In this document: piece by piece, positions 25,611 through 64,000 of the stretch
Numbering within the stretch: position 1 is the first letter of the stretch
Layout: every line of letters begins with the position of its first letter
From: an archaeon
GTDB taxonomy: Archaea; Asgardarchaeota; Thorarchaeia; Thorarchaeales; Thorarchaeaceae
Length of the DNA: 64,000 bases
Direction of reading: 5' to 3'
Assembly: GCA_024276825.1 (NCBI GenBank)
Contig: JAJRWI010000069.1
Span: 1 to 64,000, forward strand
Program-made: the position numbers and the translations under genes
Notes under the pieces: generated by a model
Told to the model about the DNA's origin: nothing
Databases searched by the model: none
The model's input: the letters and a program-made list of their open reading frames with translations, nothing else

Positions 25611-26642
25611 ATTCCAGCAAAGAAAGAGGAAGTCGATGATATAGATTATGAGGACTTCGAGGAAGAAGAACCTCCTATAGAAACCGCAGACGATGTTGCG
25701 CTTGAGGGATTCGAAGTCACAGATTTACCTGGCGTTGGCCCAGCAATCGGCAAACGGCTTGCTGAAGCAGGATACAAGTCCGTAGAAGCAATCGCTGTAG
25801 CATCACCAACTGAACTTGCAGCAGCGGGATCAATTGGTGAGAGCACAGCCACAAAAATAATCAAAGCAGCCAGGGAGATGCTAGATATAGGATTTGAAAC
25901 CGCAGACCTTCTACTTGAACGCAGAAAGAATGCGGGAAGAATAACAACAGGATCTAAAGCTCTGGATGACTTGTTTGGAGGGGGCATTGAAACACAGAGC
26001 ATCACAGAGATGTATGGTTCATTCCGTTCAGGTAAAACACAAATGGCCCATCAATTAGCAGTGAATGTTCAATTGCCATCCGATCAGGGAGGTCTTGAAG
26101 CCACTGCAATATACATTGATACTGAGGGCACCTTTAGACCAGAACGACTTGTGGATATGGCAGAAGCTCTCGGTCTTGACCCAGCCAAGGTGCTAAAGAA
26201 TGTGATTTGGGCCAGAGCCTATAACTCAGACCATCAGATTCTATTGTGCGATCAAGCAATGGAGATGGCATCTGAGAAGAATGCAAAACTCTTAGTAGTC
26301 GATTCGGTCACTAGCCATTTTCGTGCTGAGTATACAGGAAGAGGCACACTTGCTGCCAGACAGCAGAAATTGAACAAACACCTCCATCATCTTCAAAGAG
26401 GAGCTGAAATTAACAACATGGCAGTCTATATCACCAATCAAGTGATGGCAAGACCTGATGCCTTCTTTGGAGATCCAACAGCACCAGTAGGAGGACATGT
26501 TCTCGCGCATGTGCCGCAGACACGATGCTATTTGAGAAAGTCGAAGGGTGAAAGAAGAATCTGTAGACTTGTGGATTCCCCGAACCTTCCTGAAGGTGAG
26601 GCAGTTTTCACAGTGACTAAAGCAGGAATTAGAGACCCATAG
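25611..26642 (+). CDS. radA: DNA repair and recombination protein RadA (canonical copy); start non-canonical, probably ATT at 25611
   Basis: Frame is open upstream of the tracked ATG 25878 and encodes the HhH domain ([18 protein letters not shown]); FETA motif, [32 protein letters not shown]. Confidence 0.93.
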
Positions 26643-43770: not shown

Positions 43771-44249
43771 TAATTCACATATCCCCCATTGTTTTGATTG
43801 AATAATTCTCAAGTTGCTGAATTGAGATGATGATCGTGCATTGTGAAATCATGATTGTTCTACAGCCTTTCACATTAGCTCCAGCAATTGATGCAAGCGA
43901 TGCATAATGCTTCATTGTTGTTCATGAGAAAATATGAGGCGGAAAAATTTCAGAGGTTCGTGAAATTACGAAAGGATAGATGAGTGAGTAAAATGCGTAA
44001 AATTTGAGCCATAACCCTTTTAATTCAGTAAACTATCATATAGGTAGATAATTTAAGTAATTTAGAAGTATTATCATACTTTATCCATAAGTTTGGTATT
44101 AAGTAGAACCATATTGCAAAATAGCATGGTACAATCATTAGTGTGCTGTTGATGTTTCTATGAGTGCGTTTGATTAGTGAACATCTGAATTGGAATATAG
44201 AGGTCTCGGGGGCTTTATATCTTTGGCTTCCCATTGGTCCCATTGAATT

Positions 44250-45925: not shown

Positions 45926-46138
45926 TTAAACAGGCACTTCATCGGCCACTCTCTTAGTAATGGCTCGAATCACTTGTGAGAAGAGTGGATTTCTGCGTTT
46001 GCATTCTTCATGAACCATTCGCAAGAACTTTCTGCAGATCTCCAATAGCTCTCCGTCTGACTTTAGTAGAAAGCCTCTAACAGATATACATACATTACAG
46101 AGTTCATCATCTCTTAGTTTTGACCAATCGATTGGCAT
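45926..46138 (-). CDS. Small hypothetical helical protein, last gene of the operon
   Basis: GGAGGT SD and TAATG coupling to the nuclease stop; MPIDWSKLRDDELC... Confidence 0.6.
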   Translation of the reverse strand: MPIDWSKLRDDELCNVCISVRGFLLKSDGELLEICRKFLRMVHEECKRRNPLFSQVIRAITKRVADEVPV

Positions 46139-47127
46139 TAAAACCAAACCTCCAGAGTTGTTTGATAAGTTCCGAATCTCTTCCATGTTCTGATTATCTC
46201 ACTAGTCAGGATTTCAGCCCTGTCCTCATTCATTACTACATTCAGAATCTTGGTTAGTCGTGAACTCAATGGCGAGCGAAGTTGCAGGTCGCTGGTGTTG
46301 ATAAATAACCGATTGACTTCATCAAAAGTTTCACGCGCACGAATAAACTCTTCGCGCTCACTCTGCAGAAAGCCAAGCGATCTTAAAACATCTTCAAGAA
46401 ACCCGAATCGTTTCAGCAGGATTGCGCCCTTGCGTGGACCTATTCCTTTGACACCCGGCGAGAAATCACAACCCGATAGAATTGCCAGGTCTCTTAATTG
46501 CTCAATGTCTAGGCCTATGGATTTCAACACTGAGTCCAATGTAGTATATTCAACCTCGTCTTTCGAATAACGAATTGATTTGGAAACATGAGGACTACCA
46601 AAGAGAAGTGCATCTACATCATTAGACAAACATGTTCCTGCAAAGCCATCCTTGCATAGTAGGGCTGCAGCCATCTCAGCCTCAGTTGGAGAAGTGATTG
46701 CTGGCACGCCAATTGCAGAACAAATATCCATGATATGGTATGCCGAGAAGTACCATCGCAGAGAAGGACTATCATGGAGACTCTGAACGAGAAAAATATC
46801 CCTTGGATCTTGAGTCCTAGAGAATTCCCTATACAGGTCATTTGCAGTTCGAATCAACTCAGGGTTGGGAGAACGCTTGAGATGTTCAGGGATTCCATCA
46901 AATATGAATACAGGCAGGATATTGCTGGCAAGAGCCTTCTTTATGAAGCCAAGGACAATTGAAACATGAATAGTCGAAATTCTATCTAGAGATTGGATGA
47001 TTCTGTTCTCGATTGAACGAATTCTCTTCATCAAATAGTTAGGGGCATCAATCGCAATCACTGCTGGGTGTATAGTATTGATCTTACCGACCTGCCAGGA
47101 GATGAAGTCCCAGTTCTTAACACCCAT
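46138..47127 (-). CDS. FEN1/XPG-family structure-specific nuclease with C-terminal PIP box
   Basis: MGVK, IAIDA, FIFDG, EAE, SNDVDALLFG, GCDF, GIGPRKG (H3TH), QTTLEVWF. Confidence 0.85.
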   Translation of the reverse strand: MGVKNWDFISWQVGKINTIHPAVIAIDAPNYLMKRIRSIENRIIQSLDRISTIHVSIVLGFIKKALASNILPVFIFDGIPEHLKRSPNPELIRTANDLYREFSRTQDPRDIFLVQSLHDSPSLRWYFSAYHIMDICSAIGVPAITSPTEAEMAAALLCKDGFAGTCLSNDVDALLFGSPHVSKSIRYSKDEVEYTTLDSVLKSIGLDIEQLRDLAILSGCDFSPGVKGIGPRKGAILLKRFGFLEDVLRSLGFLQSEREEFIRARETFDEVNRLFINTSDLQLRSPLSSRLTKILNVVMNEDRAEILTSEIIRTWKRFGTYQTTLEVWF

Positions 47128-47832
47128 CTATACTACCTCCACCCCACTCTTTCTTATTCTTACAACAATTGCAGGGGGTATTCCATGAATAGGACTTTTT
47201 TCAGCAAGGATTCTATAGTAATCCCTTGTTCCCTCAAGAAGCCCCACAAGAAGGGACCAGTCGATATCGTGGGTCAGAACATTTCCACCTATGGGGATTA
47301 TCTTTCCAGAGTCCCAATTGCGTTTTGAGTGCCCCGTTAATAGAATGTGAATATCCATCGAATTGGCAAGTCCCCTCAAGCATTCAAGAGTGTTGAAGAG
47401 TTTGCGTTGCCTTTCTTTCGATCCTGGATTTCCTGATAGGTTCAGAAGATTTGTGAGGTTATCGATTATAAGAAGGAAGAGTAATTCGAATTCTCTTAAT
47501 GATTCTTTGAGCAGTTGGATATCCTCAAGATTTAGAATGTTGGTAAAATGAACCAATCTCATTACTTTCTCAGATTGAGAGGAGTTCTTGCACATGCTTC
47601 TTATTATCCTAGGGTTGTAATTCTTTCCTGAGTCAAGGAACACCACAGACTTTCCTGCCTTTGCAACTTGAACTGCAAGGTTGTGGGCCAACAATGTTAG
47701 AGGTGCTTTGTTAGGTCCGTGAATCAATGTGATCTGATGACTTTGTAGTTGGAATATGCTGTTAAGAACATGAGGCTTCAATGAGATGTTAAGATCATCA
47801 TCAGTTCTTAGTCTATCAAGTGGAATGGCCAT
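47128..47832 (-). CDS. Degenerate RecA/RadA-fold protein (Walker A lost)
   Basis: ITLIHGPNKAPLT (no GKT), VVFLDSGKNYNP, LLIIDNL, PIGGNVLTH. Confidence 0.72.
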   Translation of the reverse strand: MAIPLDRLRTDDDLNISLKPHVLNSIFQLQSHQITLIHGPNKAPLTLLAHNLAVQVAKAGKSVVFLDSGKNYNPRIIRSMCKNSSQSEKVMRLVHFTNILNLEDIQLLKESLREFELLFLLIIDNLTNLLNLSGNPGSKERQRKLFNTLECLRGLANSMDIHILLTGHSKRNWDSGKIIPIGGNVLTHDIDWSLLVGLLEGTRDYYRILAEKSPIHGIPPAIVVRIRKSGVEVV

Positions 47833-48787
47833 TCTCTCTCACCCCAGCAGGAATCATTCGAGTATCGCGGTTGATTAGTAATGAACTGATCACATTTGTT
47901 GGCAGCCTTGATACATTGTAGCCTGATACAAAGACATCGGGACATACTGCAATCAGTCCCCCAATTCGGGGAAACAATGTGACATAGTTTGCACCTTCAG
48001 TCAGAAGAACATCAATCAATTTCTGCTCCGGAATGATACAATATCGCCCATGTGCAAGTTCACCCTCATTCTCAATGAGTGGAAGAGCAAGAACAAGCTT
48101 GAGTAGGATTTGACTCCCAATCTCGTAAGGTATCTTGTTTCTTTGGAGCAGGTTATTGATTGTAGCATGCCAGTCCTCGAGATGTTTGGCTCTCAATACC
48201 AAGGCATCAAATTCATCAAGAATTGTCATTGAAACCGGAAGCATCGGACGGTCTCTCATAAGCTGAATAATCTTCATTTCATACTCTTTAGGGATTATGA
48301 ACAGGGCCAATGATGAAGTGCTAATTCTGAGCCAGCTAAAAGTATGCCCTTCCCAAACTGAGTAGAGTTTCATAACGAGAAAGCTGATAAGCGGATAAGA
48401 CCCAAATAACTGGCCCAATATCGAGATTGAACTCTGGGGGTCTTGAACTAATCGCGCTAGCAGGCCGACAAGTGCAACCGCTGCAATCATTGGGACTATT
48501 CCAAAAGGAAGTATGATCAAAGCACTTGCTATTGCCAAGAGAATGACACTTGCCCATGCGATGATGCTAATTAAATTAAACAATAGACCATCTTTATCAT
48601 CAAATTTCCCTGAAATTCGTAACAAGGCTACTGAACAGACTATCAAAACAATTAGAGGAAGATAATCGCCCAGTCTAGCAGCAATCACAATTGAGGACAC
48701 ATATCTGATTAGATGCCCACCCATGAGAATAGCAAAAGCTGCTGCAAATGATAGCCACATCAGACGAAAGCAGTACTTACTGAACAA
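47816..48787 (-). CDS. Polytopic membrane protein of unknown function
   Basis: About five N-terminal TM segments, then a soluble domain; overlaps both neighbours. Confidence 0.65.
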   Translation of the reverse strand: MFSKYCFRLMWLSFAAAFAILMGGHLIRYVSSIVIAARLGDYLPLIVLIVCSVALLRISGKFDDKDGLLFNLISIIAWASVILLAIASALIILPFGIVPMIAAVALVGLLARLVQDPQSSISILGQLFGSYPLISFLVMKLYSVWEGHTFSWLRISTSSLALFIIPKEYEMKIIQLMRDRPMLPVSMTILDEFDALVLRAKHLEDWHATINNLLQRNKIPYEIGSQILLKLVLALPLIENEGELAHGRYCIIPEQKLIDVLLTEGANYVTLFPRIGGLIAVCPDVFVSGYNVSRLPTNVISSLLINRDTRMIPAGVRENGHST

Positions 48788-49413
48788 TTCAGATCGCCCT
48801 CCTGTAAGGCACCATCAGGCCTGATAATGACAGAACCATTCTCTTGTATGAGAGTCTCTGCTATCTTATTTCCATTTACCAAGATGCTAGAGATACCAGT
48901 AGGATCTCTTCTAATTTCAAGGTCATTATCACAGAATCTCCTGATGATATCGTAGAGGAGAGGGACATTGTGATCATTGAGAAAACGCATCTCATTGATT
49001 GCAAGAATCTGAAGGTTGGAATTCATAACCAGTGAGGAAAGAGTTGGCATTACCTCTTCTAACATTTCTCTGCCCCATAATGTGGGGTCTTTTCGTCCCA
49101 AGTCCACAGTTCGTGATATCGAGTCTATGACAACTAGCCTTGTGTTGCTGTTGATCAATTTGGGTAGTCGTTGTATCTGCTCTAATGCCTGCCCATGAGC
49201 CATGACGACTGAAACATTTTCTCTCTTGCCATTATTCAGTGATATGTTGTTTCTAAGGGGGTTTAGGAATGACCATTTACCATCCGTGTTCATCCATAGT
49301 ACATGATGATTCACAGTTAGTGGGGCTGCAATGGCAATTGCGAAAAGTGTCTTTCCAGAGCCTGCATCACCCCATACATGAGTCAGGCCTTTCAAATTCA
49401 GCATCATCCGCAA
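48760..49413 (-). CDS. RadB-like RecA-family ATPase (no N-terminal domain)
   Basis: WGDAGSGKT, LWMNTDG, LVVIDSIS, AINEMR. Confidence 0.78.
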   Translation of the reverse strand: MRMMLNLKGLTHVWGDAGSGKTLFAIAIAAPLTVNHHVLWMNTDGKWSFLNPLRNNISLNNGKRENVSVVMAHGQALEQIQRLPKLINSNTRLVVIDSISRTVDLGRKDPTLWGREMLEEVMPTLSSLVMNSNLQILAINEMRFLNDHNVPLLYDIIRRFCDNDLEIRRDPTGISSILVNGNKIAETLIQENGSVIIRPDGALQEGDLNCSVSTAFV

Positions 49414-49416
49414 ATA

Positions 49417-51009
49417 TCACACCCCCTCCCCAATAGTTGCTTTCGATGTTGGCTTGCTGGATGGGTCGCTTTCTCTGTCATCTTCAACTGCACCTGCGTT
49501 TCTAATTTCGGCTAATACATCTTCAATACTGTCAAGTTCAGAGCCACCTTCAGATGCTGGTTGATCATCGGACATAGTTCCACCATTCTCTGTATCACTT
49601 GCCACAATGACTGGCAAATCGCCCTCCATCCAAGACCTAGTCTGGGCACTAATAGCTTGGATTGATTTCTCCTCGATGATGTCATCAGGGGTCTCCAGCT
49701 CTTCCTCAATTGCTTGCAGAGTATCTCGCAATGACCTGTCATTAAGAACATCATATACTCTATCACGAGCCTCAGGATCGATTAATCCTGCATTGAATAA
49801 TGAACAACTAATCTGGCCTATTATTGCAATGAGCCTTTTTTCAGTCAGGGGCGAAGTGAAATGAGAAGTGATATCGCTATAGATCAATGCAAGTTCTGCT
49901 TCTTCATTGCCATCAAGAGTATATAAAGTTCGGAAGAGACCCAAGAACTTGTCCAAGCCAGTATCGCCTGATGTACTGTGACTATCAATCAGGTTTGGCG
50001 CCGCAAACACACATTCATCTAGAATTGATGACAATAACAAAACAGTCCTCTCAATCTGTCCCGAGGATATTGACTCAGCTGATGAGATTAACAGCGGGGA
50101 TATTATGAAACTCATATCTCCTATGGCCTTCAGAATGGTCTTGTTGTTCGCAATTGCCTGATCAATGCGATAAGAATCAGATAGAGATGCAATGCATGTC
50201 AGTTCATCATTAAAGTTGTTCCAGAACGATGTGATGCGCTTACGGGAGTCCATTAGAAGCCAAGAGCCAAATGCACTGCTTGCAATTGCTGAAACAAGTG
50301 GAATGACGAATAAACTTGATCGATAGATAAATGCTGTAACCAGTGAGAGCAATCCAATTATGCCGAAGATGATTCCAAGAGCTCCATACCATCCCCTAGT
50401 TATTCCTGCTTTCAAATAGTCCCACTTTTCAGGAATAACATTTTCATAAAGATCAGATAGAAACGCTCTATTATCGCTGTTAATCGCCGGCACAAAGGTT
50501 TCTCTGTTGACAACTCTTCGAGAGTCAGTCAACCAAGAGAGATCAAAGGATGGTCTTACATCATCTATCACAACATAGACAGTCTTGGTCGGGTAAATGG
50601 CCGACCGCTTCATACTTTTGTTAGACACAAAGAGGGGGATTTTGACATTACCCAAGGGTATTCGGATTTTGAACTCATCGAGATTTATGTCCAAGTCCAC
50701 ATCAGATAATGTTTCATGAAGATTCCTGCTGATTACATCCAGCACCCTTGATTTCAGAGCAAGCACTGATCTACCGAATTGAGCTCTTTGAAGATCAAGC
50801 ACATATGTGATGTCAACATGCACTCCGCGTGTAGAAGGCATTCGGTTAAGCCTTACAGCAAGAATCAGCCCATTGTCATAAACGTTTACTCGATAGCCCA
50901 ATCGTTTTAATGATTCTTCAAGGTCATAGAGTTCGGTGTTTATGACCTCATTCTCATTTTCTAGGGCTTGGTCTTCATCAGCCCTTTCAGTTTTCTCTTT
51001 AATTTTCAT
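49417..51009 (-). CDS. Hypothetical membrane protein (central TM hairpin, acidic tail)
   Basis: GALGIIFGIIGLLSLVTAFIY / LFVIPLVSAIASSAFGSWLL; GGAGG SD before ATG 51009. Confidence 0.65.
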   Translation of the reverse strand: MKIKEKTERADEDQALENENEVINTELYDLEESLKRLGYRVNVYDNGLILAVRLNRMPSTRGVHVDITYVLDLQRAQFGRSVLALKSRVLDVISRNLHETLSDVDLDINLDEFKIRIPLGNVKIPLFVSNKSMKRSAIYPTKTVYVVIDDVRPSFDLSWLTDSRRVVNRETFVPAINSDNRAFLSDLYENVIPEKWDYLKAGITRGWYGALGIIFGIIGLLSLVTAFIYRSSLFVIPLVSAIASSAFGSWLLMDSRKRITSFWNNFNDELTCIASLSDSYRIDQAIANNKTILKAIGDMSFIISPLLISSAESISSGQIERTVLLLSSILDECVFAAPNLIDSHSTSGDTGLDKFLGLFRTLYTLDGNEEAELALIYSDITSHFTSPLTEKRLIAIIGQISCSLFNAGLIDPEARDRVYDVLNDRSLRDTLQAIEEELETPDDIIEEKSIQAISAQTRSWMEGDLPVIVASDTENGGTMSDDQPASEGGSELDSIEDVLAEIRNAGAVEDDRESDPSSKPTSKATIGEGV

Positions 51010-53191
51010 TTTCAGAAGCCTCCAATTTTCCGAATCTTCTATCAATCAACAGTTTCAATTGACGAGCATTCTCAGACACCTGTACTAGTCCACCATGTTG
51101 GGCTATGACAGATATGCAATACAGCAGCCACTTGGCATTCTCAAGAATGAATATCAGATCCCCATAGGAGATCGAGTACATCTTTGAGATGTCATGCAGG
51201 GGTATTGAAGTGGTTGCAACCTGCCCAATGAATTGTTCAAAATCAATCTCGAGCTTTTTGCCAGTTTCAAGTCGAGTCAAATGATGAACAAGCCAGAATA
51301 ATTGAGAGTTATTCTCGATGATTGGCAATATAACAATCATCTCACGAAAAGTATTCGTGCGTAAATAGAGTTTATTTACAAGACGTCCAAGATGAGTTGG
51401 TCTCAGTTTACCATCAATCGAACCCTCGACTAGACCCAACCTTATCAGACTTCTAGCTGGGCTTGATTCACTTAGCGCTAGGGGGATGATATAATTAGCA
51501 TTGTCGGGATGCTGTTGAACTGCGGACACACCAAGTGAAACCAGATGCGGGCAGAGAATGCCATTCTTCATTAACGGTTGTCCGCATGAGCAGGTTGGTC
51601 CTTCGATTAGATTATTGGAGGAGGTACGGATTGAGAATCTGCAAGTCACACTGCCTCCCGGAATGCCCGAAACCAGTCCCCCAATAACGGTGGGACTGAT
51701 CTCGCGAATCTCCACTCGTCCTAGAACACCCTCTTTTGCCGCTTTTAGAGTCGATGATATACTATGGCGTTCTATGGCCTTAATTGCAGTGATTTCACCA
51801 AGTTCGAGTATCCGAGATGGAGAGTTGATATCACGAACACTGGTAAATGCAAGAAATGAGTTTCCAAGAAAGCCATGTTCTATTGAGTCAAGAGTCGATT
51901 CACCAACAAAGTCAAGAGCGACGAGCAATTGGTCGGTGAGGTCATTTGCAATCTGACTGTGAATCTGTTCATATTTTGGAATCAGAATTATATTTCCTGC
52001 ATCATCCTGAACATTGTCAAAATATGACTCAACGATTCTTTGAGCTTCGCCCCTGCTGCCAGCAAGAATAATGCCAAAGCCCTTTAGATCCTTTCCAGGC
52101 CGTCCTGCTCTTCCCAGCATTTGATGAACAAGATTTGCAGGCAACAATTGAGTGCTGACACCAGGCTGGTTCACATTAGTAATCACAACTGTTCTTGCGG
52201 GCAGGTTCATTCCAGCAGCAAGAGTTGTAGTTGCGCTGATGACCTTAATGAGACCTCTTTCAAACAGGTCTTCAATAAATAAGCGAGTTTTGGAATTCAT
52301 TCCCGCATGATGGAATGCAACACCATCATGGATCAGTGGAGTCAAATCAGGAGCAATCTGAGAACCCCAATTAGACACACCACCGACTTCACTATCGAGC
52401 TCTATTTTTTCCCTACGGGTCAGTTGTCTGCCAACTTCATTAGCAATACGTTTCGCTGTTGCTTCGGCCTCTCGTCTGGTTCTGTTGAAGATTATCAATT
52501 GGCCATTGCTCTGAACGGTAGTCATTATGATTTCCCGAGCCAGACGGGTTCGGTCTGAAGTCGAAATGACCCTATTAACAAGTGGTACTGGTCGTTCTGT
52601 ATGAGTAATGAGCTTGCAGTCAAGCCATTCAGCAAGCTCATCTGGAGCAGCAATTGTTGCTGATAGCGCAATAATCTGAACATCCGATATTATACGTTTC
52701 AACCGAATAATCAGGCTTTCAAGACGTGATCCTCTCTTGCCTTGAGAGAGAGTCTGTATCTCATCAATCACAACTGCACCAATCTCAGATAGCCAAGAGG
52801 TTCTGTGGCGAAATAACGAGTCGGCCCTCTCATATGTCATCACTATGATGTCATTATCTGCCAGTTCATCACCATTCATGTAATAATCGCCCGTTGAGAG
52901 AGCAATCTTGATCTGCTCGCTGGCATACTTTGCCCATAGCTCATTAGCAATCTGTGTAGCCAATGCTCGTAATGGGACAAGGTAAATGCCTTTGGAACCG
53001 TCAATTACTGCACGCAACAGGGCCATTTCACCAATGAGGGTCTTGCCTGAACCAGTGGGAGAGCAAATCATTAGGCTCTCGCCATCAAGCACTCCTTCCT
53101 CAATCGCTCGCACCTGCACTCCTCTGGGAGTGACCCCTATTGTACTTAGTATTCTTTTGATCTCTTGAGCAGTGTCAATTACGGCCACCAA
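50999..53191 (-). CDS. Hel308/Ski2-like SF2 helicase with inserted SWIM zinc finger
   Basis: SPTGSGKT, VPLRALA, TYE, DEIQ, ALSAT, FHHAG, TLAAGMNLPA, QMLGRAGRPG; CSC-x10-CPH; PTHLG. Confidence 0.85.
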   Translation of the reverse strand: MVAVIDTAQEIKRILSTIGVTPRGVQVRAIEEGVLDGESLMICSPTGSGKTLIGEMALLRAVIDGSKGIYLVPLRALATQIANELWAKYASEQIKIALSTGDYYMNGDELADNDIIVMTYERADSLFRHRTSWLSEIGAVVIDEIQTLSQGKRGSRLESLIIRLKRIISDVQIIALSATIAAPDELAEWLDCKLITHTERPVPLVNRVISTSDRTRLAREIIMTTVQSNGQLIIFNRTRREAEATAKRIANEVGRQLTRREKIELDSEVGGVSNWGSQIAPDLTPLIHDGVAFHHAGMNSKTRLFIEDLFERGLIKVISATTTLAAGMNLPARTVVITNVNQPGVSTQLLPANLVHQMLGRAGRPGKDLKGFGIILAGSRGEAQRIVESYFDNVQDDAGNIILIPKYEQIHSQIANDLTDQLLVALDFVGESTLDSIEHGFLGNSFLAFTSVRDINSPSRILELGEITAIKAIERHSISSTLKAAKEGVLGRVEIREISPTVIGGLVSGIPGGSVTCRFSIRTSSNNLIEGPTCSCGQPLMKNGILCPHLVSLGVSAVQQHPDNANYIIPLALSESSPARSLIRLGLVEGSIDGKLRPTHLGRLVNKLYLRTNTFREMIVILPIIENNSQLFWLVHHLTRLETGKKLEIDFEQFIGQVATTSIPLHDISKMYSISYGDLIFILENAKWLLYCISVIAQHGGLVQVSENARQLKLLIDRRFGKLEASENEN

Positions 53192-53192
53192 C

Positions 53193-55493
53193 TCACACCC
53201 CTCCCTCAACTGTTAGCGCCTGACGAAGTGCCATGGTACCTTTCAGAGTAATGCGATAGTTCGAATAGTTCACTCCATTGAGAAACTCGTGTCCACGCAA
53301 GATCATGTTTGCCTGTTCCAGTTGAATAAGCAGGCTTTCAATATCATCAATCTCTACGCCACTAGTTTGAATGAACTTCTTGAGCGCCTCAACTGTGAGG
53401 GGCTCGTACCGTTCGAGAAGCTGTAGAACTTGAGCTGCAAGATTAGATCTCTCACCAGTGACAAATGCAAGTACACCTGATTCTGCCGCCATTGATGGTT
53501 GTTCTGAAGTTCCAATCATACTCAAGCGTCTGGACGTGATGTCTGACTCAGAGGGAGTGTGCAACTTTAATGGTGGACCAAGCTTTAAAGGAACACATGT
53601 ATCAGGGTTCGAATCTACGAGAAGTGCATGCTCCTTTTTCATGGTGCGCAGATAAGAGCTCTCACGTGATGATATTCGTGCCTTACTATGAATCGAGTCG
53701 ACCACCGACAGGCCTAACATATCAGACATGACCTTGATGTCTTGAGAACTCTTCAGCCTGAAGGCAAGGCAAGAACTGAACAGATCTAATAGATGTTGAA
53801 GTTCCGATGGATTTCTTATGCTTAACATTAGAGGGCCACGCCTGAGCATGTCAGTGATCAATCTATGAGTCCATAAACCCCGACTACGGTCATGCAGTTT
53901 CAGCAGAAGATTTAGAGGTTCGTCTAGAATTATTACGACATTCTTGTCCTTTGTGAGGGCTGATATCTTTATCATGAAAAGGTCCCATGCAAATGTGTCA
54001 AGTTCATTGGAGTTCAAGTCTATTAGCATGACAGTAAGTGGGAACTCGGTCAACTTAGCCATCTTTGCAGTCTGGATACCATAAAAGGCACGAGCCCCGA
54101 TTCCGCGATGGAGAACACGGACTGCCTCAAACCCATCAAGTGAGGCCCTGGAGGGAGAGTCATCCGCTGTTATCGTGGGTTGGTCTTCATTGTGGAGAAG
54201 AGTGATGTCTGCTACAGTTCCTCCGTTCAATGCCACAGCTCTGCTTAGGGCATCCTCAAAGTGTGATGCAGAACTGAGTGCTGAAGAGCATATCACTTCA
54301 AGTGCGGTTTTCAATCTGGGCACAAACTCGTGCCTTGGAATGTTCTCAGCATCAACGGGATTCAAGACAAAGTCTTTTCCCAGGGTCAGACCAAGTGAAT
54401 TGTTGGTCAATGATAATAGAGACATTGCTCTTCTGTTATTTGTCAAAATTATCACATGCTTTCCGGACCTCAATATCTGAGGAATCAAAAGACTGTAGGC
54501 ATGAAATCTATCAGACCACTCACCACCAGTAATTAGAACTCCATTCAAGAGGTCATCATCTGTGAAGCCTACTATAGGCCCAGTCTGCAATGTTTCGGGA
54601 TTGATTATCACACCCAATTGATAGTCGCACTGCTTGGCACGAACGGGCGAGATGAATTCGCCAGGAATATTGGCCCCCACTTCCGGAGCGAGTTCTGAAA
54701 CCAATTGAATGGTCCATTCTGATAACTCACGACCGAGAGCATAGAATCGTGGTGTACCATCTAATATCCTGCATTCATTCACCCATTTGGCAAGCCGCTT
54801 GCCGCTCATTCTCTTCAGCCCGTGCTCAGGAATGGAGCCTCGAACTGCAGAGTCAAAGTATCGAGTTTCGTTCTCATTCAATGTTTGACCAAGTATTGTA
54901 AGACCTGTCTTCCACAAACCACCCTTCGAAATAATGATGTCTGATGGTGCCCTATGAAAACGCCTACTAAAAAATGGCAGTGGAAAACGCTTCAGTTTAT
55001 TTCTGTTGACAATTACTGCATTGTTCTCAGGTACCAAAGAAACAGTGAATGAGAAGCCAGAACTTGTATCAAGTGCTCTAATAAGCTTGGACAGGTTTCC
55101 TGCTAGGCGGGGAGGTTGCTTAAGTTCTAGGCCAAGTAAAAGAGTCTGAGGACCTGCACCCTCGAACTCTACCTCTCTTTTTCTAGGACCAAGGAATATC
55201 TCAGACACTTTCAAGTTGCATAGGCCAGCCTCTTGAAGCTTGGACTCGTCAGACCTCATTCGAAGACTAAATAGAAACATAGTGATTGCAGTTGCAAATA
55301 ATAGGACAACAACATGATTTAATGTTATAAAGATGAAACTATAGATGGATGCTACAAGCAATAGATCGAAGAGTGGGTTGCTTCTGATTCGTCTATCGCA
55401 CAACCGAGCCTTTCCAGAGGGTCTTAGTTGCATCCTGCCCTCATAGGTTATCTCGTGAGTGTCTATCAATGACGAGTTCCATCTAGATATCAT
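53193..55493 (-). CDS. Membrane-anchored VirB4/HerA-like P-loop protein with degenerate Walker A and C-terminal wHTH
   Basis: N-terminal TM pair; GVLITGGEWSDRF at the Walker A position, GKDFVLNP, VIILDEP, SIRNPSEL...AFRL; YRITLKG wing. Confidence 0.65.
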   Translation of the reverse strand: MISRWNSSLIDTHEITYEGRMQLRPSGKARLCDRRIRSNPLFDLLLVASIYSFIFITLNHVVVLLFATAITMFLFSLRMRSDESKLQEAGLCNLKVSEIFLGPRKREVEFEGAGPQTLLLGLELKQPPRLAGNLSKLIRALDTSSGFSFTVSLVPENNAVIVNRNKLKRFPLPFFSRRFHRAPSDIIISKGGLWKTGLTILGQTLNENETRYFDSAVRGSIPEHGLKRMSGKRLAKWVNECRILDGTPRFYALGRELSEWTIQLVSELAPEVGANIPGEFISPVRAKQCDYQLGVIINPETLQTGPIVGFTDDDLLNGVLITGGEWSDRFHAYSLLIPQILRSGKHVIILTNNRRAMSLLSLTNNSLGLTLGKDFVLNPVDAENIPRHEFVPRLKTALEVICSSALSSASHFEDALSRAVALNGGTVADITLLHNEDQPTITADDSPSRASLDGFEAVRVLHRGIGARAFYGIQTAKMAKLTEFPLTVMLIDLNSNELDTFAWDLFMIKISALTKDKNVVIILDEPLNLLLKLHDRSRGLWTHRLITDMLRRGPLMLSIRNPSELQHLLDLFSSCLAFRLKSSQDIKVMSDMLGLSVVDSIHSKARISSRESSYLRTMKKEHALLVDSNPDTCVPLKLGPPLKLHTPSESDITSRRLSMIGTSEQPSMAAESGVLAFVTGERSNLAAQVLQLLERYEPLTVEALKKFIQTSGVEIDDIESLLIQLEQANMILRGHEFLNGVNYSNYRITLKGTMALRQALTVEGGV

Positions 55494-55780
55494 GGGCCCC
55501 TCCTAATCATCGATTGCGAGAGGATCTCAAGAATACGGCTGAAATGCCTTACATGATTCTCATCACCATCCCAGATGAACAGCTTGCGATGGATAATTGA
55601 GATTGAAGGCATATTATTCTTTGACGATTCTCCATGAGCGACAATTTTGGGTAGTTTAACCAGTACTCTCCAGCTATAACCATGACCTGATTGCAGTACT
55701 GACATCAGTTGATCAATGTCGAGAAATGGCGAGATATCAAGTGCTTCACTAGCATTTGACTTCAATCTCAACACCTCCAT
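55490..55780 (-). CDS. Small hypothetical protein
   Basis: Overlaps both neighbours in the operon (ATGA coupling at 55490-55493). Confidence 0.55.
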   Translation of the reverse strand: MEVLRLKSNASEALDISPFLDIDQLMSVLQSGHGYSWRVLVKLPKIVAHGESSKNNMPSISIIHRKLFIWDGDENHVRHFSRILEILSQSMIRRGP

Positions 55781-56339
55781 TAACCATGAGCATCATCTGA
55801 TCGAGTGTGGCCTTAGTGATGGGAGTATGAGGATAAGCAGCTCTCATCGCACCCTCCAGAACATAAGACACAATCTCAATTTTCTTCACTAACGAGTCAA
55901 GAAACCTCCCCACCCCAAATATACGGGAAGTTCTTCCAATAACCATCATTCCAACGGTAGTACTCGAAGAGCTCATTGGTCTTACCACTACAAACCTGAG
56001 CTCAAACTTCGCCCAATCTTTGGCGTGAAGACTCATTGCCTCAAGAACCTTCGCTGAAGAATGTGACAGGTCTATGCCAATTGGTATACTACTGAATATC
56101 CGTGCGCTATATACTTCGATATGCCAAGGACGAAGATTTACCAGCATTTTGCCGCCCTTGTCCCAAAATATCACAGAACGACCGCCATGCTTCCTGTAGA
56201 TATAGGCCACTAGAAAGAGGCCAGTTAGTCCCAAGGAACTCTCAATAAGTCCCATTATACTGCTCAATATCAGAGAGCGGAGAAGTAATGCAGAAGCAAT
56301 AAAACCAAGTAGATATTTCGCAGAGAAAGTCCTCGACAT
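55749..56339 (-). CDS. Two-TM membrane protein with soluble C-terminal domain
   Basis: Two N-terminal hydrophobic helices; abuts helicase stop. Confidence 0.65.
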   Translation of the reverse strand: MSRTFSAKYLLGFIASALLLRSLILSSIMGLIESSLGLTGLFLVAYIYRKHGGRSVIFWDKGGKMLVNLRPWHIEVYSARIFSSIPIGIDLSHSSAKVLEAMSLHAKDWAKFELRFVVVRPMSSSSTTVGMMVIGRTSRIFGVGRFLDSLVKKIEIVSYVLEGAMRAAYPHTPITKATLDQMMLMVNGGVEIEVKC

Positions 56340-58301
56340 TCATATCGACCCCCTGTTGCCGCTAATGAATGTTTCAATAGCAGACACCATCTCATCCTTA
56401 CTCTCAAAGGGCCAAATATCGGAGATAATGTCAGATCCGAAAACATTCAGATAATTGTGAAATCGTTTATCGAAGAGGATCACTATTCCTCTATCTGTGG
56501 GGCTACGCCGTAGGCGGCCAATTAGTTGAGCAACTCGGCGTATTGACGGGACTACTATGGAATAGTAATAGCCCGAACCAGATCCATACCGTTCGTCAAA
56601 CCATAACTGAAGTGCCCTATGAAAACTAGTAGGTGGAGAAAAGGGTATACCAACACCAATGATGAGGTTAATCTGTGATGAACCATCCTTTACTAGATCG
56701 ATACCCTCGCTGAACTTCCCGCCATAGACTGCGAAGATTGCATGCGGTGTTTCATCAACTGCCCTCCGCAGATCATCCAATTGTGCCTTGGGATCCTCTA
56801 CAATTCTGCTTCTGTGCCCGCAGTCAATGTTATAGCTGAGAACCTCATTCATTATTCTATAGCTTGGGAATGCAACCAGTGCGCTCTTATTAGCTGGAGT
56901 AGTCGTTAATGCAACGCTTATTCGTTCTGCAATGGCACGCCAGAGTTCAGAACCTCGTTCGGTATACTTGGTGGTCAAGTGCTTGTCAAGCAATACTAAT
57001 CGAGTTCCTTTCTCATAAGGGCTCGTGAGATGTGCTGTACGGGCACTTGGAATCCCAAGGAGTGATGCATAATGATTTAACGGATTAAGAGTGCCAGACA
57101 TCAAGAGAGCTGACCGGGCACCTCTCAGTATTGGTGTTGTGAATCCCATTGCATTAAGAGGACGGGCTTTTAACACTGCATTCTCAATTGAGACCGATCT
57201 ATCCCATGAACGTGATAGTTCTATTGTGATGTGCCAGTCATTACTCAGAGTCGCCCGATGTCCAGCCTGAAGAATATCAAACAATCGTTCCAGTGGAGTG
57301 CTCGAATACGACTCGCCATCCGTTGGATCAGAATTGTCTTGATTTCTATAGAGCAATTGAGCAAGCTCATCCATATCCACAAATCGGGGCAATATCTCCC
57401 AGCGATTAAGAGCATGTTCGTTCTTGTTCCGGATCTTGTCGAGATTCAGCATGAATGTTTCCCAGAGAAAATCAATGACATCGAATAGCCACGAGGCATT
57501 CGTAGTCACATCGAGAGCATCACGGTTCTCTTTCAACCATAGAAGATCCTTGCCTGAAATCTGGGCAGATTCTACCTCCAGAACATGATCAGCAAGGTTG
57601 TGTGCCTCATCAACAATGAGGTCTATGTCTGACAGATCGACATTTAGAGCCCTCAGAAACGCATTTCTAACTCGCTCTTGAAACAAGTATGAATAGGGAC
57701 CAATTACCACCCTGCTATTGCGTGCTGACCACCGAAGAACTTCGTAGGGACAATAGCCAGATGAGAATGAGAGGTTCTCAGCGGTTTCTTGGGTGACAAC
57801 GTCGCCATTCAAAGTATTGACAAGGTCATCCCTAGCGGACTCTCTGAGCTTCAGATTGCCTGAGTTCGAGTTCCCAATAAACATGTTATAATAATAGTTG
57901 CATTCACCTGAACGTATCATTGCAGCACAGCCACGGGTGAATCCTGCCACAGAAGTCTGCTGAATCTCAGCCTTCATAGGACAGACATGGATTCTCGAGA
58001 CCATGCTTGTTGCTGTCAGATGAAATGAGAGTTTCTTCGCTGCTTCTGTTTCATTCAACACACGAAGTTCGGACTCAAACACGCAGGCCTGAGAATGAGT
58101 TCGTGTGAGTACTATTAACTTGGACTCGGGATCATTTGCACGTGCTGCAAAGTAACCCGAGAGAACCGCAATTGTCTTGCCAACACCACAATCTGCTGAG
58201 AGCAAGCCCACTGTCTTCTGCTTAAATACCTGTGTGGCAAAGCGAATTGCATGGTCTTGATGAGGACGGGGTTTGTATGGAAACCATGCCATTGCATCCA
58301 T
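56340..58301 (-). CDS. XPD/Rad3/DinG-family Fe-S helicase
   Basis: FPY.PRPHQ, ADCGVGKT, RTHSQ, four Fe-S Cys (VCP, GC, EC, YCPY), IVDEAHNL, MSGTL, FSEGID, QLIGRLRR. Confidence 0.9.
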   Translation of the reverse strand: MDAMAWFPYKPRPHQDHAIRFATQVFKQKTVGLLSADCGVGKTIAVLSGYFAARANDPESKLIVLTRTHSQACVFESELRVLNETEAAKKLSFHLTATSMVSRIHVCPMKAEIQQTSVAGFTRGCAAMIRSGECNYYYNMFIGNSNSGNLKLRESARDDLVNTLNGDVVTQETAENLSFSSGYCPYEVLRWSARNSRVVIGPYSYLFQERVRNAFLRALNVDLSDIDLIVDEAHNLADHVLEVESAQISGKDLLWLKENRDALDVTTNASWLFDVIDFLWETFMLNLDKIRNKNEHALNRWEILPRFVDMDELAQLLYRNQDNSDPTDGESYSSTPLERLFDILQAGHRATLSNDWHITIELSRSWDRSVSIENAVLKARPLNAMGFTTPILRGARSALLMSGTLNPLNHYASLLGIPSARTAHLTSPYEKGTRLVLLDKHLTTKYTERGSELWRAIAERISVALTTTPANKSALVAFPSYRIMNEVLSYNIDCGHRSRIVEDPKAQLDDLRRAVDETPHAIFAVYGGKFSEGIDLVKDGSSQINLIIGVGIPFSPPTSFHRALQLWFDERYGSGSGYYYSIVVPSIRRVAQLIGRLRRSPTDRGIVILFDKRFHNYLNVFGSDIISDIWPFESKDEMVSAIETFISGNRGSI

Positions 58302-58316
58302 TGCAGCGACAATCAG

Positions 58317-58934
58317 TCAGGCTCCCCCCATTCTAATGCATGACTCGGTACGATGCACTCTGAAACGTATTGAAAAATAGGAATATAGGAGATTATAGAA
58401 CTTCATTAATAATGTTGGTGAGTCATAGAATCGCTCTTTTCGAGCCATCCTCTCAACTATTCTCTTGCTAAATCCGTTCTTCTTTGCAGTTTCCCAGAAG
58501 TAGACCTCTATATCCTTCATTGTTGACAGATGATGGACGATTGTCTTCACTAGGAGATTAGTCAATAGTTCAATGGCCTTTCTTGCATTATGCGGTAAAT
58601 TAGATGCTCTTATGCTCATGGGCAAATAGACTGGTACACCATCAAGACTATCGTAATAAATCTCCCGTGGCACACCCTTGCTGCTTCGTAAGGTTTCCAG
58701 CAGTGAGAGTATTCTTGGAAGTTGGGGCAAGATTGGTTTTGATATGTCACGATCGCGCCACTCAATCTTCGTCAAGACGTGCAGCTCTGGGTCAGGCTCT
58801 TGTTCAGCATCAATTGCAAGTACAGTTATTCTATGATTAGTGTCTCTCAATTGAAGGTTAATCAGATTCAGAATTGAGATCCATGAGTGTGAAGTATCTC
58901 TTACAAATGCATCATGTTTCACCGCAACACTCAA
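58317..58934 (-). CDS. Hypothetical protein
   Basis: Coupled to neighbours in the operon. Confidence 0.6.
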   Translation of the reverse strand: MSVAVKHDAFVRDTSHSWISILNLINLQLRDTNHRITVLAIDAEQEPDPELHVLTKIEWRDRDISKPILPQLPRILSLLETLRSSKGVPREIYYDSLDGVPVYLPMSIRASNLPHNARKAIELLTNLLVKTIVHHLSTMKDIEVYFWETAKKNGFSKRIVERMARKERFYDSPTLLMKFYNLLYSYFSIRFRVHRTESCIRMGGA

Positions 58935-59377
58935 ACAATCTCACCCCGCACAATTCCAATAAGATTATCATCCTTGAACAGGACTTCTTCCTCTATGAGT
59001 TTGTGAAGCATTTTACTTGACTTTGTAAGCGAGAATCCAAGAATGGTGGCCTCTCGTAGGACATCTTCAATGGGCACAGGCCAGCCACGGTTGAGTTCGA
59101 GCAGGGACTCGACAATCTCAATCAATGTTCGTCTTATCCCAAGACCATAGTGAATCTTGGGGGCTTTCCGTTCCCTCCTCTTCTGATGAACTAGGTCCCG
59201 GACCAGTTCTTCAGCTTCAATGGTTGTTGCAGCATAGAGTGTCCCAGGCTCGTCGATAATTACAGCGGAGCAGAGAGAACAGTGTGAAGACTCGTGCTCG
59301 TTCTCAATTCTTACAAAACCAATATTGTTGCATTTGGGACATTGATATACTCTGAACATTCCCCGCTCCTGATGCAT
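58931..59377 (-). CDS. Zinc-ribbon + C-terminal winged-helix protein
   Basis: CPKC...CSLC; IEDVLREA..LGFS...MLHKLIEEEVLF. Confidence 0.7.
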   Translation of the reverse strand: MHQERGMFRVYQCPKCNNIGFVRIENEHESSHCSLCSAVIIDEPGTLYAATTIEAEELVRDLVHQKRRERKAPKIHYGLGIRRTLIEIVESLLELNRGWPVPIEDVLREATILGFSLTKSSKMLHKLIEEEVLFKDDNLIGIVRGEIV

Positions 59378-60420
59378 TAGGCAACTGCCTCCTGCTCGAT
59401 CTCTTTAAGCACAGCCTGATGGTCGCATCCCCTAGATCTCAGATACTTCAGAATTGCGTCCTGCATGTTATCCTTCTCTTTTGCATTCTCATAAAACCCC
59501 CCCCAACCTAGCTTGAGAGTCAGCTCAAACTCAGGCACTCCGGCATTATCCTGTAAAGCGATCTTTCTCTGATCATCCTTTCCAACCTTTAGATTAAACC
59601 TATAGTCAGAAGCATGCGAAAGAATGTGACCCCCAGATGGTGCATTAAGGCTGGATGAAAACTGTGAGATTTTGGACATCACTTGATTTGTATAAACGAA
59701 TATTGCTTCGGTTGCAGCGGCTGTTCTTCGCATTAGACTCAGCAGCTTATTCATCTTTTGCTGTCGTATTCTAAGGCTGTCAAGACCTGTGTACTCCGAA
59801 CGGAACAGTCCAGTAAATGAGTCGATTATGACAAGCTTGTAATTCTCACGAGCTAACAGGTTTGGGATGTTTTCGAAGCGCTCTTGAATTTGTGAACTGT
59901 CTATTATCGTGGCATGTCCAATATTTCCCAGAGCTACTTCTGGGTCTAGACCACGTCGATAGGCCATCGCCCTGATAATCCATGGTTTGAATGCCCTTTC
60001 AGTGTCTAGCCACAACACACGGCCTTCAAGCCCACCATCTTTGAGAGGAAGCTGTACCATAATAGCAAGCATTGCGCACCATTGCGTCTTTCCAGCACGT
60101 GCTTTGCCAAATAGTTCAACAATGGATCCTAACTCAATGCCACCCCAGAGGTGTTTATCGAGTTTGCTAACCCCTGTTGACAACCGTGGTTTTAATTCAA
60201 GTTCGCGCTCAACTTCGAGACCTGAACGAAATTCAAATTTGCCAATGACCTTTCGCGCTGCCCTTACTATTGAGACCGCTTTGCCAGGTCCAATATTAGT
60301 TCTGGCATTGAGCTCATCAGGGTTCTGCACGGCCAGCAATTCTGCTGTGGTGATGAAGGCGGCCTCTAGCTTCTTGGCAATAGCGGGACCTATGCCAGGT
60401 ACTGCTTCAAGCTCGGTCAT
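59377..60420 (-). CDS. Full-length RadA/Rad51 paralogue (second recombinase-like protein)
   Basis: HhH VPGIGPAIAKKL, FRSG, GKARAGKT, WLDTERAF, IIDSF, TNQV, GGHILSH. Confidence 0.88.
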   Translation of the reverse strand: MTELEAVPGIGPAIAKKLEAAFITTAELLAVQNPDELNARTNIGPGKAVSIVRAARKVIGKFEFRSGLEVERELELKPRLSTGVSKLDKHLWGGIELGSIVELFGKARAGKTQWCAMLAIMVQLPLKDGGLEGRVLWLDTERAFKPWIIRAMAYRRGLDPEVALGNIGHATIIDSSQIQERFENIPNLLARENYKLVIIDSFTGLFRSEYTGLDSLRIRQQKMNKLLSLMRRTAAATEAIFVYTNQVMSKISQFSSSLNAPSGGHILSHASDYRFNLKVGKDDQRKIALQDNAGVPEFELTLKLGWGGFYENAKEKDNMQDAILKYLRSRGCDHQAVLKEIEQEAVA

Positions 60421-60878
60421 GGCAATGCCTCCATGATGTCGTCAAAAAGCGGGCCAATTATTGTGACCAAGTTGAGAAATCCTTGGAGAGCATCAAAAAG
60501 AACAAGAACATCATCATTGTTAATGACAACAAGGTCAGACAGGAGCATAAGCAAGTCAGAGTGGTATTCACCTGCTATTCCCAACTTGATGCCAATGTCT
60601 GTAAGTGTGCCTGCTACGCTCACATAGCCACCAATGTAGTCAAAAAGAGAACCCTGCAAGTATCTGTTCAATAACGCGTTTTCGGGACTGATTGGATCAA
60701 TATCATCCCACCAATTTACGAAACTCTCAACTTCAGAATAGAATTGCATCCATTCTTTGGAGAACTTTAGATGCTTCATTTCAGCCAGTGCAGTCTTTGC
60801 GCCAATTAACCAAGCTTCAGGCAGGCCCAACTCCATGTGGTTCCCCATTGCGTGTTTGGCATATCTAGCAAACATCAT
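60417..60878 (-). CDS. Hypothetical helical protein
   Basis: GGAGG SD; ATGA overlaps at both ends. Confidence 0.6.
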   Translation of the reverse strand: MMFARYAKHAMGNHMELGLPEAWLIGAKTALAEMKHLKFSKEWMQFYSEVESFVNWWDDIDPISPENALLNRYLQGSLFDYIGGYVSVAGTLTDIGIKLGIAGEYHSDLLMLLSDLVVINNDDVLVLFDALQGFLNLVTIIGPLFDDIMEALP

Positions 60879-61636
60879 ATCGCCTCCACGGGTGAACTTG
60901 TACATTTGGACGAATGAGTTTCAATTGAGAGTTCATCCAACCAGTATAGGAGTTCTTGAACAAGAGGGGTTTCAATCTCATCTCGCGAAAGAACAGAGTA
61001 GATTAGGCCCTTTGCCGCATTCTTCACTGTTTGAAGAGCTAGACACCGCTCACCATCATCTAGATGGGGATATCGTGGACCCGTTTCAAAGTTCGAAACC
61101 TCCCCAAGAAAGTCACGCCAATCCAGATGCCAATAGCCAACATAAGGGTCATTATTGAGAATGCGTTCAAGAATCTTTGAGAACTCTTCCCACTTGTTCA
61201 TAAAGCGAATAACAGATTGTGCAAGAGTCCTGGCCCAGTTCTCTTTTTTTGTGGTTGCTGCCTGAAAAACGAGTTTGACATAGGTTCCAGAAGAACGGGT
61301 TTCGAGAACAGCCATTTGCAGATTGCGTGGATGCTTAGAGGCAATCAATGAGATAAGTGGAACTATACCAAAAAGATTGCAGAGAACAAACGAATACTTG
61401 CTTAGATCAATAACGGTGGTATCATTCACAAGAATACAATCTCGCAGCCCAAACACCAGACTGACCATTCCGGTATTGTCATTTTCATCAATTACATAAC
61501 GCGCAGACTCGAGATACCAATCGCCGCGAGAGAACGGAATTGCAAACCCCAGAGTGATGTCATACTGGCCATCCACCAATCTTCCTTTGCGGTCCATGAA
61601 TATATGTTCAAGATCGTCTATCAATAGCTCACCCAC
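60875..61636 (-). CDS. Hypothetical protein, first gene of the operon
   Basis: 253-aa ORF after a 212-nt AT-rich gap containing GTATAAAA on the minus strand. Confidence 0.6.
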   Translation of the reverse strand: MGELLIDDLEHIFMDRKGRLVDGQYDITLGFAIPFSRGDWYLESARYVIDENDNTGMVSLVFGLRDCILVNDTTVIDLSKYSFVLCNLFGIVPLISLIASKHPRNLQMAVLETRSSGTYVKLVFQAATTKKENWARTLAQSVIRFMNKWEEFSKILERILNNDPYVGYWHLDWRDFLGEVSNFETGPRYPHLDDGERCLALQTVKNAAKGLIYSVLSRDEIETPLVQELLYWLDELSIETHSSKCTSSPVEAI

Positions 61637-61848
61637 ATTACCATTCCATTTGTGATAATTTTCGAATTTTCATCATTCCCAATAATTGACTAATCGATTA
61701 AGAAGGCAAAATAGAGGAATTTTATACTAAAATGATGGATAAACACCAGTCATAAAGTCCCACTATTAGGATAAACGAATATTATTACCACATCAATCAT
61801 CATTTGGGAATGGGTAGAACCATAGCCAATAATACTGTGGTATGAGTG

Positions 61849-63782: not shown

Positions 63783-64000
63783 CTAAATCCAATCGCCAGT
63801 TTCTAGCTTTCTAGGTAGATACTCATCAGTAAGGAATTGGAATGAATGACTTGCAAATGCCTGAATCTCTGCCTTCTCCTTCATCTTGAGCATGAGCTTG
63901 AGATCCTGCACCCATTCCTTATTAGCCTGTACGAAGGGTTCTTTCAGCATGTCCTTCACACGTTTGATGTCAGCAGGCTCCATTGGAATCCTCACGGCCT
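63783..64000 (-). CDS. top6A: DNA topoisomerase VI subunit A (Spo11 family), C-terminal fragment
   Basis: DIKRVKDML.EPF...EW..DL..ML..KEKAEIQA...FL..EYLPRKL...DW matches the Top6A/Spo11 C-terminus; runs off window end. Confidence 0.8.
   Translation of the reverse strand, partial: AVRIPMEPADIKRVKDMLKEPFVQANKEWVQDLKLMLKMKEKAEIQAFASHSFQFLTDEYLPRKLETGDWI

Follow-up and report, generated by a model that had tools for sequence, protein, structure and literature searches.

The window analysed here comprises 64,000 nucleotides (nt) of contig JAJRWI010000069.1 (assembly GCA_024276825.1) from an archaeon of the Thorarchaeia (Asgardarchaeota). It carries on its minus strand an operon of fifteen genes (g1-g15) encoding several membrane proteins and a full second set of recombination enzymes, and these genes together with that of a giant surface protein form a selected, vertically inherited unit. 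The operon probably represents a previously undescribed module that accepts DNA arriving at the cell membrane and integrates it into the chromosome by recombination. The more specific prediction, drawn from sequences and structural models, is that it is the recipient-side processing module of a CedD-type system of intercellular DNA exchange, a reading to which we give an even chance. The central membrane protein, g9, is a membrane-anchored, ATP-dead subunit of the CedD/VirB4 family with a C-terminal winged helix. The genes are numbered from g1 at the 61636 end down to g16.

g1, 60875..61636, minus strand: first gene; conserved soluble protein of 253 amino acids with syntenic orthologues (n=21)
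g2, 60417..60905, minus strand: small conserved protein
g3 (RadA2), 59377..60420, minus strand: full-length, fast-evolving second RadA with HhH and ATPase domains and an intact GKT
g4, 58931..59377, minus strand: Zn-ribbon and putative winged-helix-like protein with two conserved CxxC
g5, 58317..58934, minus strand: conserved protein with orthologues (n=25)
g6, 56340..58301, minus strand: second XPD-type Fe-S helicase (DEAD_2/Helicase_C_2/HBB)
g7, 55749..56339, minus strand: protein with two transmembrane (TM) helices (9-25 and 31-47) and a soluble domain
g8, 55490..55780, minus strand: small conserved protein
g9, 53193..55493, minus strand: CedD-related protein with two TM helices, an alpha/beta N-domain, a VirB4/HerA-fold pseudo-ATPase domain and a C-terminal PadR-like winged helix
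g10, 50999..53209, minus strand: second Hel308-type helicase with an inserted SWIM Zn finger
g11, 49417..51045, minus strand: beta-domain, TM hairpin and helical domain (predicted model)
g12, 48760..49413, minus strand: RadB-like short RecA paralogue with an intact Walker A
g13, 47816..48787, minus strand: protein with four TM helices and a soluble C-domain
g14, 47128..47832, minus strand: mediator-like RecA-fold paralogue lacking Walker A
g15, 46138..47127, minus strand: last gene; FEN1-like flap nuclease, the second of the genome, retaining the catalytic acidic residues and a PIP-like tail
g16, 45926..46186, minus strand: not conserved, probably outside the system
convergent conserved gene, 44250..45920, plus strand: lies between operon and giant gene in most Thorarchaeia; only its position suggests a regulator
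giant surface-protein gene, 35986..43812, minus strand: membrane-anchored protein of 2,608 amino acids; part of the block

The original prediction, made from the window alone, had described an operon of sixteen genes between 45926 and 61636. Sixteen minus-strand open reading frames do lie there, with junctions of -49 to +15 nt, and GGAGG-type sites precede most of the operon frames. However, g16 has no homologue in the fetched loci, which leaves fifteen genes, and the block reaches beyond these limits to the giant gene. Gene order was identical in 26/26 Thorarchaeia family loci as far as the contigs extend, as the proposed synteny check asked; g1-g15 were complete and in order in 14 of these loci, and the others showed single losses or replacements only. 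In two genomes of one genus, g2 is swapped for a further HhH and RecA-type paralogue directly upstream of RadA2. Genes g1-g3 are missing from one single-contig chromosome of the same genus as the genome studied.

Among 85 Thorarchaeia genomes surveyed, g9 and g3 were each found in 53. Both were present in 48 genomes, neither in 27 and one alone in 10, so that membrane and repair genes co-occur as had been expected; their linkage means that this pattern cannot be taken as independent evidence of function. A control gene was recovered from 79 of the 85 genomes; the 19 genomes without g9, g3 and the giant gene all have it, so that the absence looks real. In close pairs, dN/dS was about 0.1-0.3 for every operon gene, the dead g9 included. 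In the RadA2 tree, sequences cluster by genus and the sister family falls outside, and RadA2 identity across the order is 46-64%, compared with 83-95% for the housekeeping RadA. No flanking repeats, as expected of a mobile element, were found around the block. The genus-grouped tree and the lack of such repeats indicate a vertically inherited chromosomal system and agree with the earlier statement that no mobile element is involved. The Pfam matches of the 15 operon genes include no relaxase or integrase, a statement limited to these genes because a genome-wide relaxase search was not made. A contig titled 'Desulfuromonadales bacterium' carries a g9 of 47% identity and is probably a mis-binned Thorarchaeia fragment.

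By Pfam, the giant protein contains a prenyltransferase-like alpha/alpha toroid and Ig-like repeats, with TM segments at both ends; it is a candidate adhesin. Its gene lies downstream of the operon in 6/6 extended loci, is present in 51 of the 53 g9-positive genomes and is absent together with g9 in 20. Several further Asgard families encode a large surface protein beside the system that is not of the toroid/Ig type but has an M28 peptidase domain. In relatives, a gene for a protein with five TM helices precedes the giant gene; it is missing from the genome studied. This protein was considered as a channel and rejected, being M50/DUF3267 protease-like instead. The M50/DUF3267-like membrane protease travels with the system, its HExxH motif being intact in the aligned copies from outside Thorarchaeia and lost in Thorarchaeia. 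The convergent gene at 44250..45920 gave zero matches in a Pfam search.

The operon enzymes are an accessory set, as originally stated: housekeeping RadA, RadB, XPD, Hel308 and FEN1 are encoded separately in the genome (the canonical radA at about 25.6 kb) and share 26-39% identity with the operon copies. The family assignments first made for the individual enzymes also stood. The full-length g3 (Rad51 Pfam, E 6e-56) has an N-terminal HhH domain, intact Walker A (GKT) and Walker B motifs and the RadA core. It is 38% identical to the housekeeping RadA, scores higher with archaeal RadA than with Rad51 or Dmc1, and falls below the equivalog cut-offs, and is therefore a RadA paralogue. The four Fe-S cysteines of XPD are conserved in g6 (26% identity to the housekeeping XPD), and g10 contains the CxC..CxH motif of a SWIM finger, which was not found in the housekeeping Hel308 and whose residues C540, C542, C553 and H555 are invariant where aligned. 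Helicases of the XPD family move with 5'-3' polarity and those of the Hel308 family with 3'-5' polarity, which would apply to g6 and g10, respectively. The RadB-like g12 (TIGR02237, E 4e-9) retains the GKT motif, with G15, G20 and K21 invariant, and g14 shows the RecA fold without Walker A, the degenerate RecA noticed before. The FEN1/XPG-family protein g15 (29% identity to the housekeeping FEN1) scores higher with FEN1 than with GEN1, EXO1 or XPG and has the acidic motifs and the PIP-like tail.

For the remaining soluble proteins, g1 gave zero matches in Pfam and NCBIfam searches, and g5 nothing usable in family searches and only a phosphatase-like lead below threshold in an Atlas search. The winged-helix portion of g4 is suggested by the Pfam matches of a paralogue; g4 homologues adjoin RadB-like/Hel308 genes in other Asgard families.

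The housekeeping radA occupies window positions 25596-26642 (plus strand). Its first ~90 codons contain no ATG, GTG or TTG, and downstream of a GAGGAGGT site stands an in-frame ATT. The same ATT/ATx start recurs in many radA genes of Thorarchaeia, others having ATG, which makes a non-canonical start probable. A Topoisomerase VI-A gene (709 amino acids, with a long N-terminal extension and two HhH domains) and a VI-B gene lie 2 kb upstream of g1 at 63783-67957 (minus strand), of which 63783-64000 is within the window. The genome has three Topo VI pairs. This HhH-Top6A/Top6B pair was rejected as a member of the system, since it is a core pair that sits near the housekeeping radA in relatives.

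Family-averaged hydropathy predicts two TM helices each in g7, g9 and g11 and four in g13. In the g9 model (pLDDT 76), two TM helices are followed by an alpha/beta domain and a P-loop-fold domain, and the protein ends in a winged helix. Full-length TrwK/VirB4 came first in Foldseek (~590 aligned columns). Structural comparison (VIA) gave Z 28.0 to VirB4 (4ag5; root-mean-square deviation 2.6 over 320 aligned residues), Z 24.0 to HerA and, for the C-terminal domain, Z ~13 to PadR-like winged helices. The Walker A lysine is replaced by Arg329 and a glycine by Asp/Glu. Across the family the P-loop position reads GG..xxER-like and Walker B is eroded; a GK[ST] Walker A is absent in all aligned members and present only in one canonical outlier. 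Thus g9 is a conserved pseudo-ATPase and not a motor, and of the VirB4/HerA-like translocase proposed at first, the VirB4/CedD-like fold stands whereas the ATP-driven activity does not. The protein itself has no NCBIfam match; for its relatives the best-scoring profile is CedD, with scores under the curated cut-off.

The soluble domain of g7 is homologous to TM and N-domain proteins that precede a split pseudo-ATPase elsewhere (iterated profile, E 1e-15 to 1e-4). Direct hhalign comparison of g7 with g9 was not significant, and the link between them rests on these intermediate proteins. The helical domain of g11 gave Z 8.9-9.6 to HEPN/NTase-substrate-binding-like domains, a value within the range of common helical folds; it has no conserved RxxxxH motif, and Foldseek found no match for g11 at E<=0.001. 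A g13-like membrane gene follows a RadB-like gene in several Asgard families (hhalign 87.9%, E 3e-6), also at their g9 loci; an Atlas search with g13 gave no usable match. Profile searches of the Protein Data Bank with g7, g11 and g13 returned nothing informative. In Loki-type genomes, g9 is a fusion of ~1,280 amino acids with 3-5 TM helices, preceded by membrane genes, and Hel308 is divergent. At three such loci one of the preceding membrane genes encodes an N-terminal HhH DNA-binding domain; orthology of these HhH membrane proteins with g11 was not supported by hhalign.

Thorarchaeia also encode an unlinked ATPase of ~1,250 amino acids with two TM helices and an intact Walker A (79/85 genomes). 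It has the ATPase and winged-helix layout in common with g9 (hhalign 86.7%, 428 columns), is the best CedD match of the genome (E 1e-23), and is a candidate partner of g9. Next to its gene lie those of an Ig-domain surface protein, a T2SSE pilus ATPase and a TFB paralogue. The locus C28:34779-50510 holds Ig surface proteins, the active CedD-like ATPase, T2SSE, a small Flp-like pilin candidate and the TFB paralogue, and is rearranged in the genome studied. The same-genus single-contig chromosome that lacks g1-g3 gave no match to the active ATPase either, which hints at decay in the genus.

Across Asgard archaea, 400 genomes were screened with the g9 profile, of which 136 matched; the matches in the Loki-type family were weak, and several other families had none. 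The membrane and repair genes are re-joined in other Asgard families and in Thermoproteota, in line with the original prediction. Other Asgard loci, with differing gene order, repeatedly contain Hel308 (with SWIM in eight loci outside Thorarchaeia), full-length RadA paralogues, a FEN1 paralogue, XPD, an M50-like gene and large surface proteins. A related-locus search with g10 alone yielded unrelated Hel308 genes only. In an unrooted tree with one long branch, a 92/98 branch separates the RadAs linked to the system in five families from other RadAs; a sixth linked copy is unplaced. Dead ATPases adjoin a RadA/RecA paralogue in several Asgard families and in Thermoproteota, where a wider profile found a TM protein, a dead ATPase, a small gene and a full-length RadA together in three genomes. 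All 31 dead ATPases tested, picked by profile, form one clade with SH-aLRT (approximate likelihood-ratio) support of 100. CedD is the best NCBIfam match of the dead Thermoproteota members (E 3e-18, 3e-11), and the nearest active relatives match CedD at E 1e-54 to 1e-73 versus 6e-9 or no match for CedB; the genes of these active relatives directly follow a pilus-ATPase cassette. An active ATPase, a dead ATPase and a RecA-like gene are adjacent on a metagenomic contig closely related to a Bathyarchaeia genome.

Taken together, these findings suggest the following route. The giant Ig-repeat protein and the unlinked Flp/Tad-type pilus locus, which has a TFB paralogue of its own, would make cell contact, and DNA would cross the membrane via a channel, driven by the unlinked active CedD-like ATPase. 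For this ATPase, g9 (plus g7/g8) might serve as a docking ring on the cytoplasmic side or as a subunit without catalytic activity; in the Bathyarchaeia-related locus, an active and a dead copy lie side by side. At the inner membrane face, the second XPD (g6) and Hel308-SWIM (g10) would unwind or remodel the incoming DNA, the RadB-like pair g12/g14, beside the membrane protein g13, would load the dedicated RadA2, and g15 would trim flaps after strand exchange. In Sulfolobales, Ups and Ced are under TFB3 control (PMC11823120), a parallel to the T2SSE ATPase and TFB paralogue beside the active ATPase.

Several observations weigh against the recipient-side reading. CedA (NF041796) was found in 0/301 Asgard genomes at E 1e-4, with the S. 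acidocaldarius control positive, although a very divergent channel could escape such a search. CedA1 (NF041797) had no match in the genome at E 0.1 and none in the operon, short pilins being easily missed by profiles. TrbL/VirB6 (PF04610) was not found in the genome, nor was ComEC (PF03772), with the genome 98% complete and 10 controls positive. These searches thus yielded no DNA channel. The active ATPase is also encoded by 29 genomes that lack g9, and in the genome studied the genes of this ATPase and of the TFB paralogue are each interrupted by one in-frame TAA, with the operon intact. Loki-type loci have a Hel308 without SWIM, and RadA2 is not adjacent there. The placement of the dead clade as sister to CedD-like proteins received a support of 47 only. 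The original proposal of DNA capture and uptake by the operon is not supported in its first form: no operon membrane protein resembles CedA/VirB6, CedA1 or ComEC (the CedA profile did not match g7, g11 or g13), and with g9 dead in addition, the operon alone cannot import DNA. Nothing was found of what had been named as grounds for abandoning the prediction as a whole, namely a gene order not conserved in related genomes, membrane genes not co-occurring with the repair genes, or membrane proteins matching unrelated known functions.

The dead motor of g9 and the lack of a channel or pilin in the operon would also suit a membrane-tethered, inducible system that repairs or handles the cell's own chromosome, the dead ring anchoring DNA and enzymes and no outside DNA being involved. 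So would the persistence of an intact operon beside a candidate active partner with a premature stop, and an enzyme set that fits generic double-strand-break or crosslink repair. We consider this unlikely, since it leaves the co-inherited extracellular protein of 2,600 amino acids and the CedD affinity unexplained, since housekeeping copies are already present, and since g9, g3 and the giant gene are all absent in 19 genomes, one of them a single-contig chromosome.

Donor-side or bidirectional chromosome transfer, in which single-stranded chromosomal DNA would be readied for export by the helicases, nuclease and recombinase and no relaxase would be needed, is improbable. The VirB4/TrwK architecture of g9 is compatible with it, helicases of both polarities plus a nuclease could yield the substrate, and for Ted loci with HerA/Rad50 a processing of DNA ends that needs no relaxase has been suggested (PMC9905601). 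However, a dedicated full-length RadA with mediator-like paralogues suits integration better, and CedD, which is essential for DNA import in Sulfolobales (PMC11868833, PMC11823120), is required in one direction only: its mutants lose import, not export (PMC11868833).

A role in defence or surveillance, by which invading DNA would be sensed and processed at the membrane, appears very improbable. HerA-family and HEPN-like domains occur in defence systems, g11 has a HEPN-like domain, the presence of the system is patchy (53/85 genomes) and its divergence is fast relative to the housekeeping RadA; yet inheritance is vertical and genus-congruent with a fixed order, the HEPN-like match is weak and without RxxxxH, and loading RadA serves recombination rather than destruction. 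It is likewise very improbable that two unrelated modules, repair paralogues and a membrane/secretion scaffold, merely share a regulon and were collected in one operon. In favour of this, genes point in several directions in other families and g9 lacks an adjacent recombination gene in some Loki-type loci. Against it, genes of the two kinds alternate here and overlap at their stop and start codons, and distant lineages of differing gene order have the dead ATPase right beside a RadA/RecA paralogue.

Two related sequence copies stand upstream of the giant gene and of g1:

motif TTTGG-N6-GTAGAACCATA, copy 1, 44092..44131, no strand assigned: upstream of the giant gene
motif TTTGG-N6-GTAGAACCATA, copy 2, 61803..61842, no strand assigned: 167 nt upstream of g1

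They form a 40-nt repeat, 70% identical, with two copies genome-wide. This signal is weak and was found post hoc; it is not conserved in relatives, whose upstream regions contain no conserved motif exceeding shuffles.

No description of this operon was found in the literature, subscription papers being mostly outside the search, in agreement with the original remark that none was known; nor was a description found of a DNA exchange mechanism of Asgard archaea. Such exchange bears on the origin of eukaryotic sex. The maintenance of a pseudo-ATPase across two phyla is itself of interest, and the named proteins (RadA2, the RadB-like pair, Hel308-SWIM, the second XPD and FEN1, the dead CedD-like subunit and the giant surface protein) can be assayed without culture of the host. 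Should the operon prove a mere add-on of a CedD importer, the claim of a separate kind would weaken.

Among known systems, Ced (Sulfolobales; CedA, A1, A2, B, D, E) and Ted (Thermoproteales) are closest. Like them the operon is chromosomal and non-mobile (PMC11868833, PMC11823120, PMC9905601). It also has a membrane-anchored subunit of the CedB/CedD type (in g9, two TM helices, N-domain and HerA/VirB4 fold), of a family whose best curated match is CedD; the genome holds two ATPase paralogues, the active one adjoined by a pilus ATPase and a TFB paralogue; and Ted loci likewise hold recombination genes (herA, rad50). Unlike Ced/Ted, the subunit has a winged helix and lacks the intact Walker A of an active ATPase, CedA/VirB6 and the CedA1 pilin were not found, and RadA, the RadB-like pair, XPD, Hel308-SWIM, FEN1 and the giant Ig-repeat protein have no part in Ced/Ted. 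Without CedA, CedA1, VirB6 or ComEC the operon is not a Ced member.

Conjugative type IV secretion systems (VirB3/VirB4/VirB6/VirD4 plus relaxase) resemble it in the alignment of g9 with full-length TrwK/VirB4 and differ in that here Walker A is dead, TrbL/VirB6 was not found, the 15 genes include no relaxase or integrase and inheritance is vertical. Bacterial natural competence combines a type IV pilus, ComEA/ComEC, DprA and RecA. The likeness lies in the proposed model only (pilus contact, membrane passage, loading of a dedicated recombinase); unlike competence, no ComEC was found, and the enzymes are paralogues of archaeal/eukaryote type including a separate recombinase. The operon is thus set apart from Ced, type IV secretion and competence, most of its genes having no counterpart there, yet by analogy it may work like Ced. 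The HerA-NurA-Mre11-Rad50 end-resection operon likewise places a HerA-superfamily fold beside recombination genes. However, g9 is membrane-anchored, dead and closer to VirB4/CedD, NurA, Mre11 and Rad50 are not in the operon, and soluble HerA-type genes are separate in the genome.

In eukaryotes, RAD51 paralogues, HELQ, Shu-SWIM proteins, FANCJ-type helicases and XPG-family nucleases form a network, and DMC1 is a specialised recombinase. The same protein families co-occur in the operon, including a second specialised recombinase. The resemblance is by family only, g3 being nearer to archaeal RadA and g15 to FEN1. In published trees, the Rad51/DMC1 duplication postdates the divergence from Asgard; RadA duplications in Asgard are noted there too, with no mention of their gene neighbourhood in a term search (PMC12722695). 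The affinity of g3 for archaeal RadA rather than Rad51/Dmc1 is consistent with these trees, and the operon gives a genomic context, hence a candidate role, for part of the duplication. Tentatively, and by analogy rather than orthology, the system might be an ancient Asgard/TACK pathway, present in the nearest kin of eukaryotes, for cell-contact chromosome exchange that is functionally 'DMC1-like': a dedicated recombinase and its accessory enzymes would be attached to a pseudo-ATPase in the membrane.

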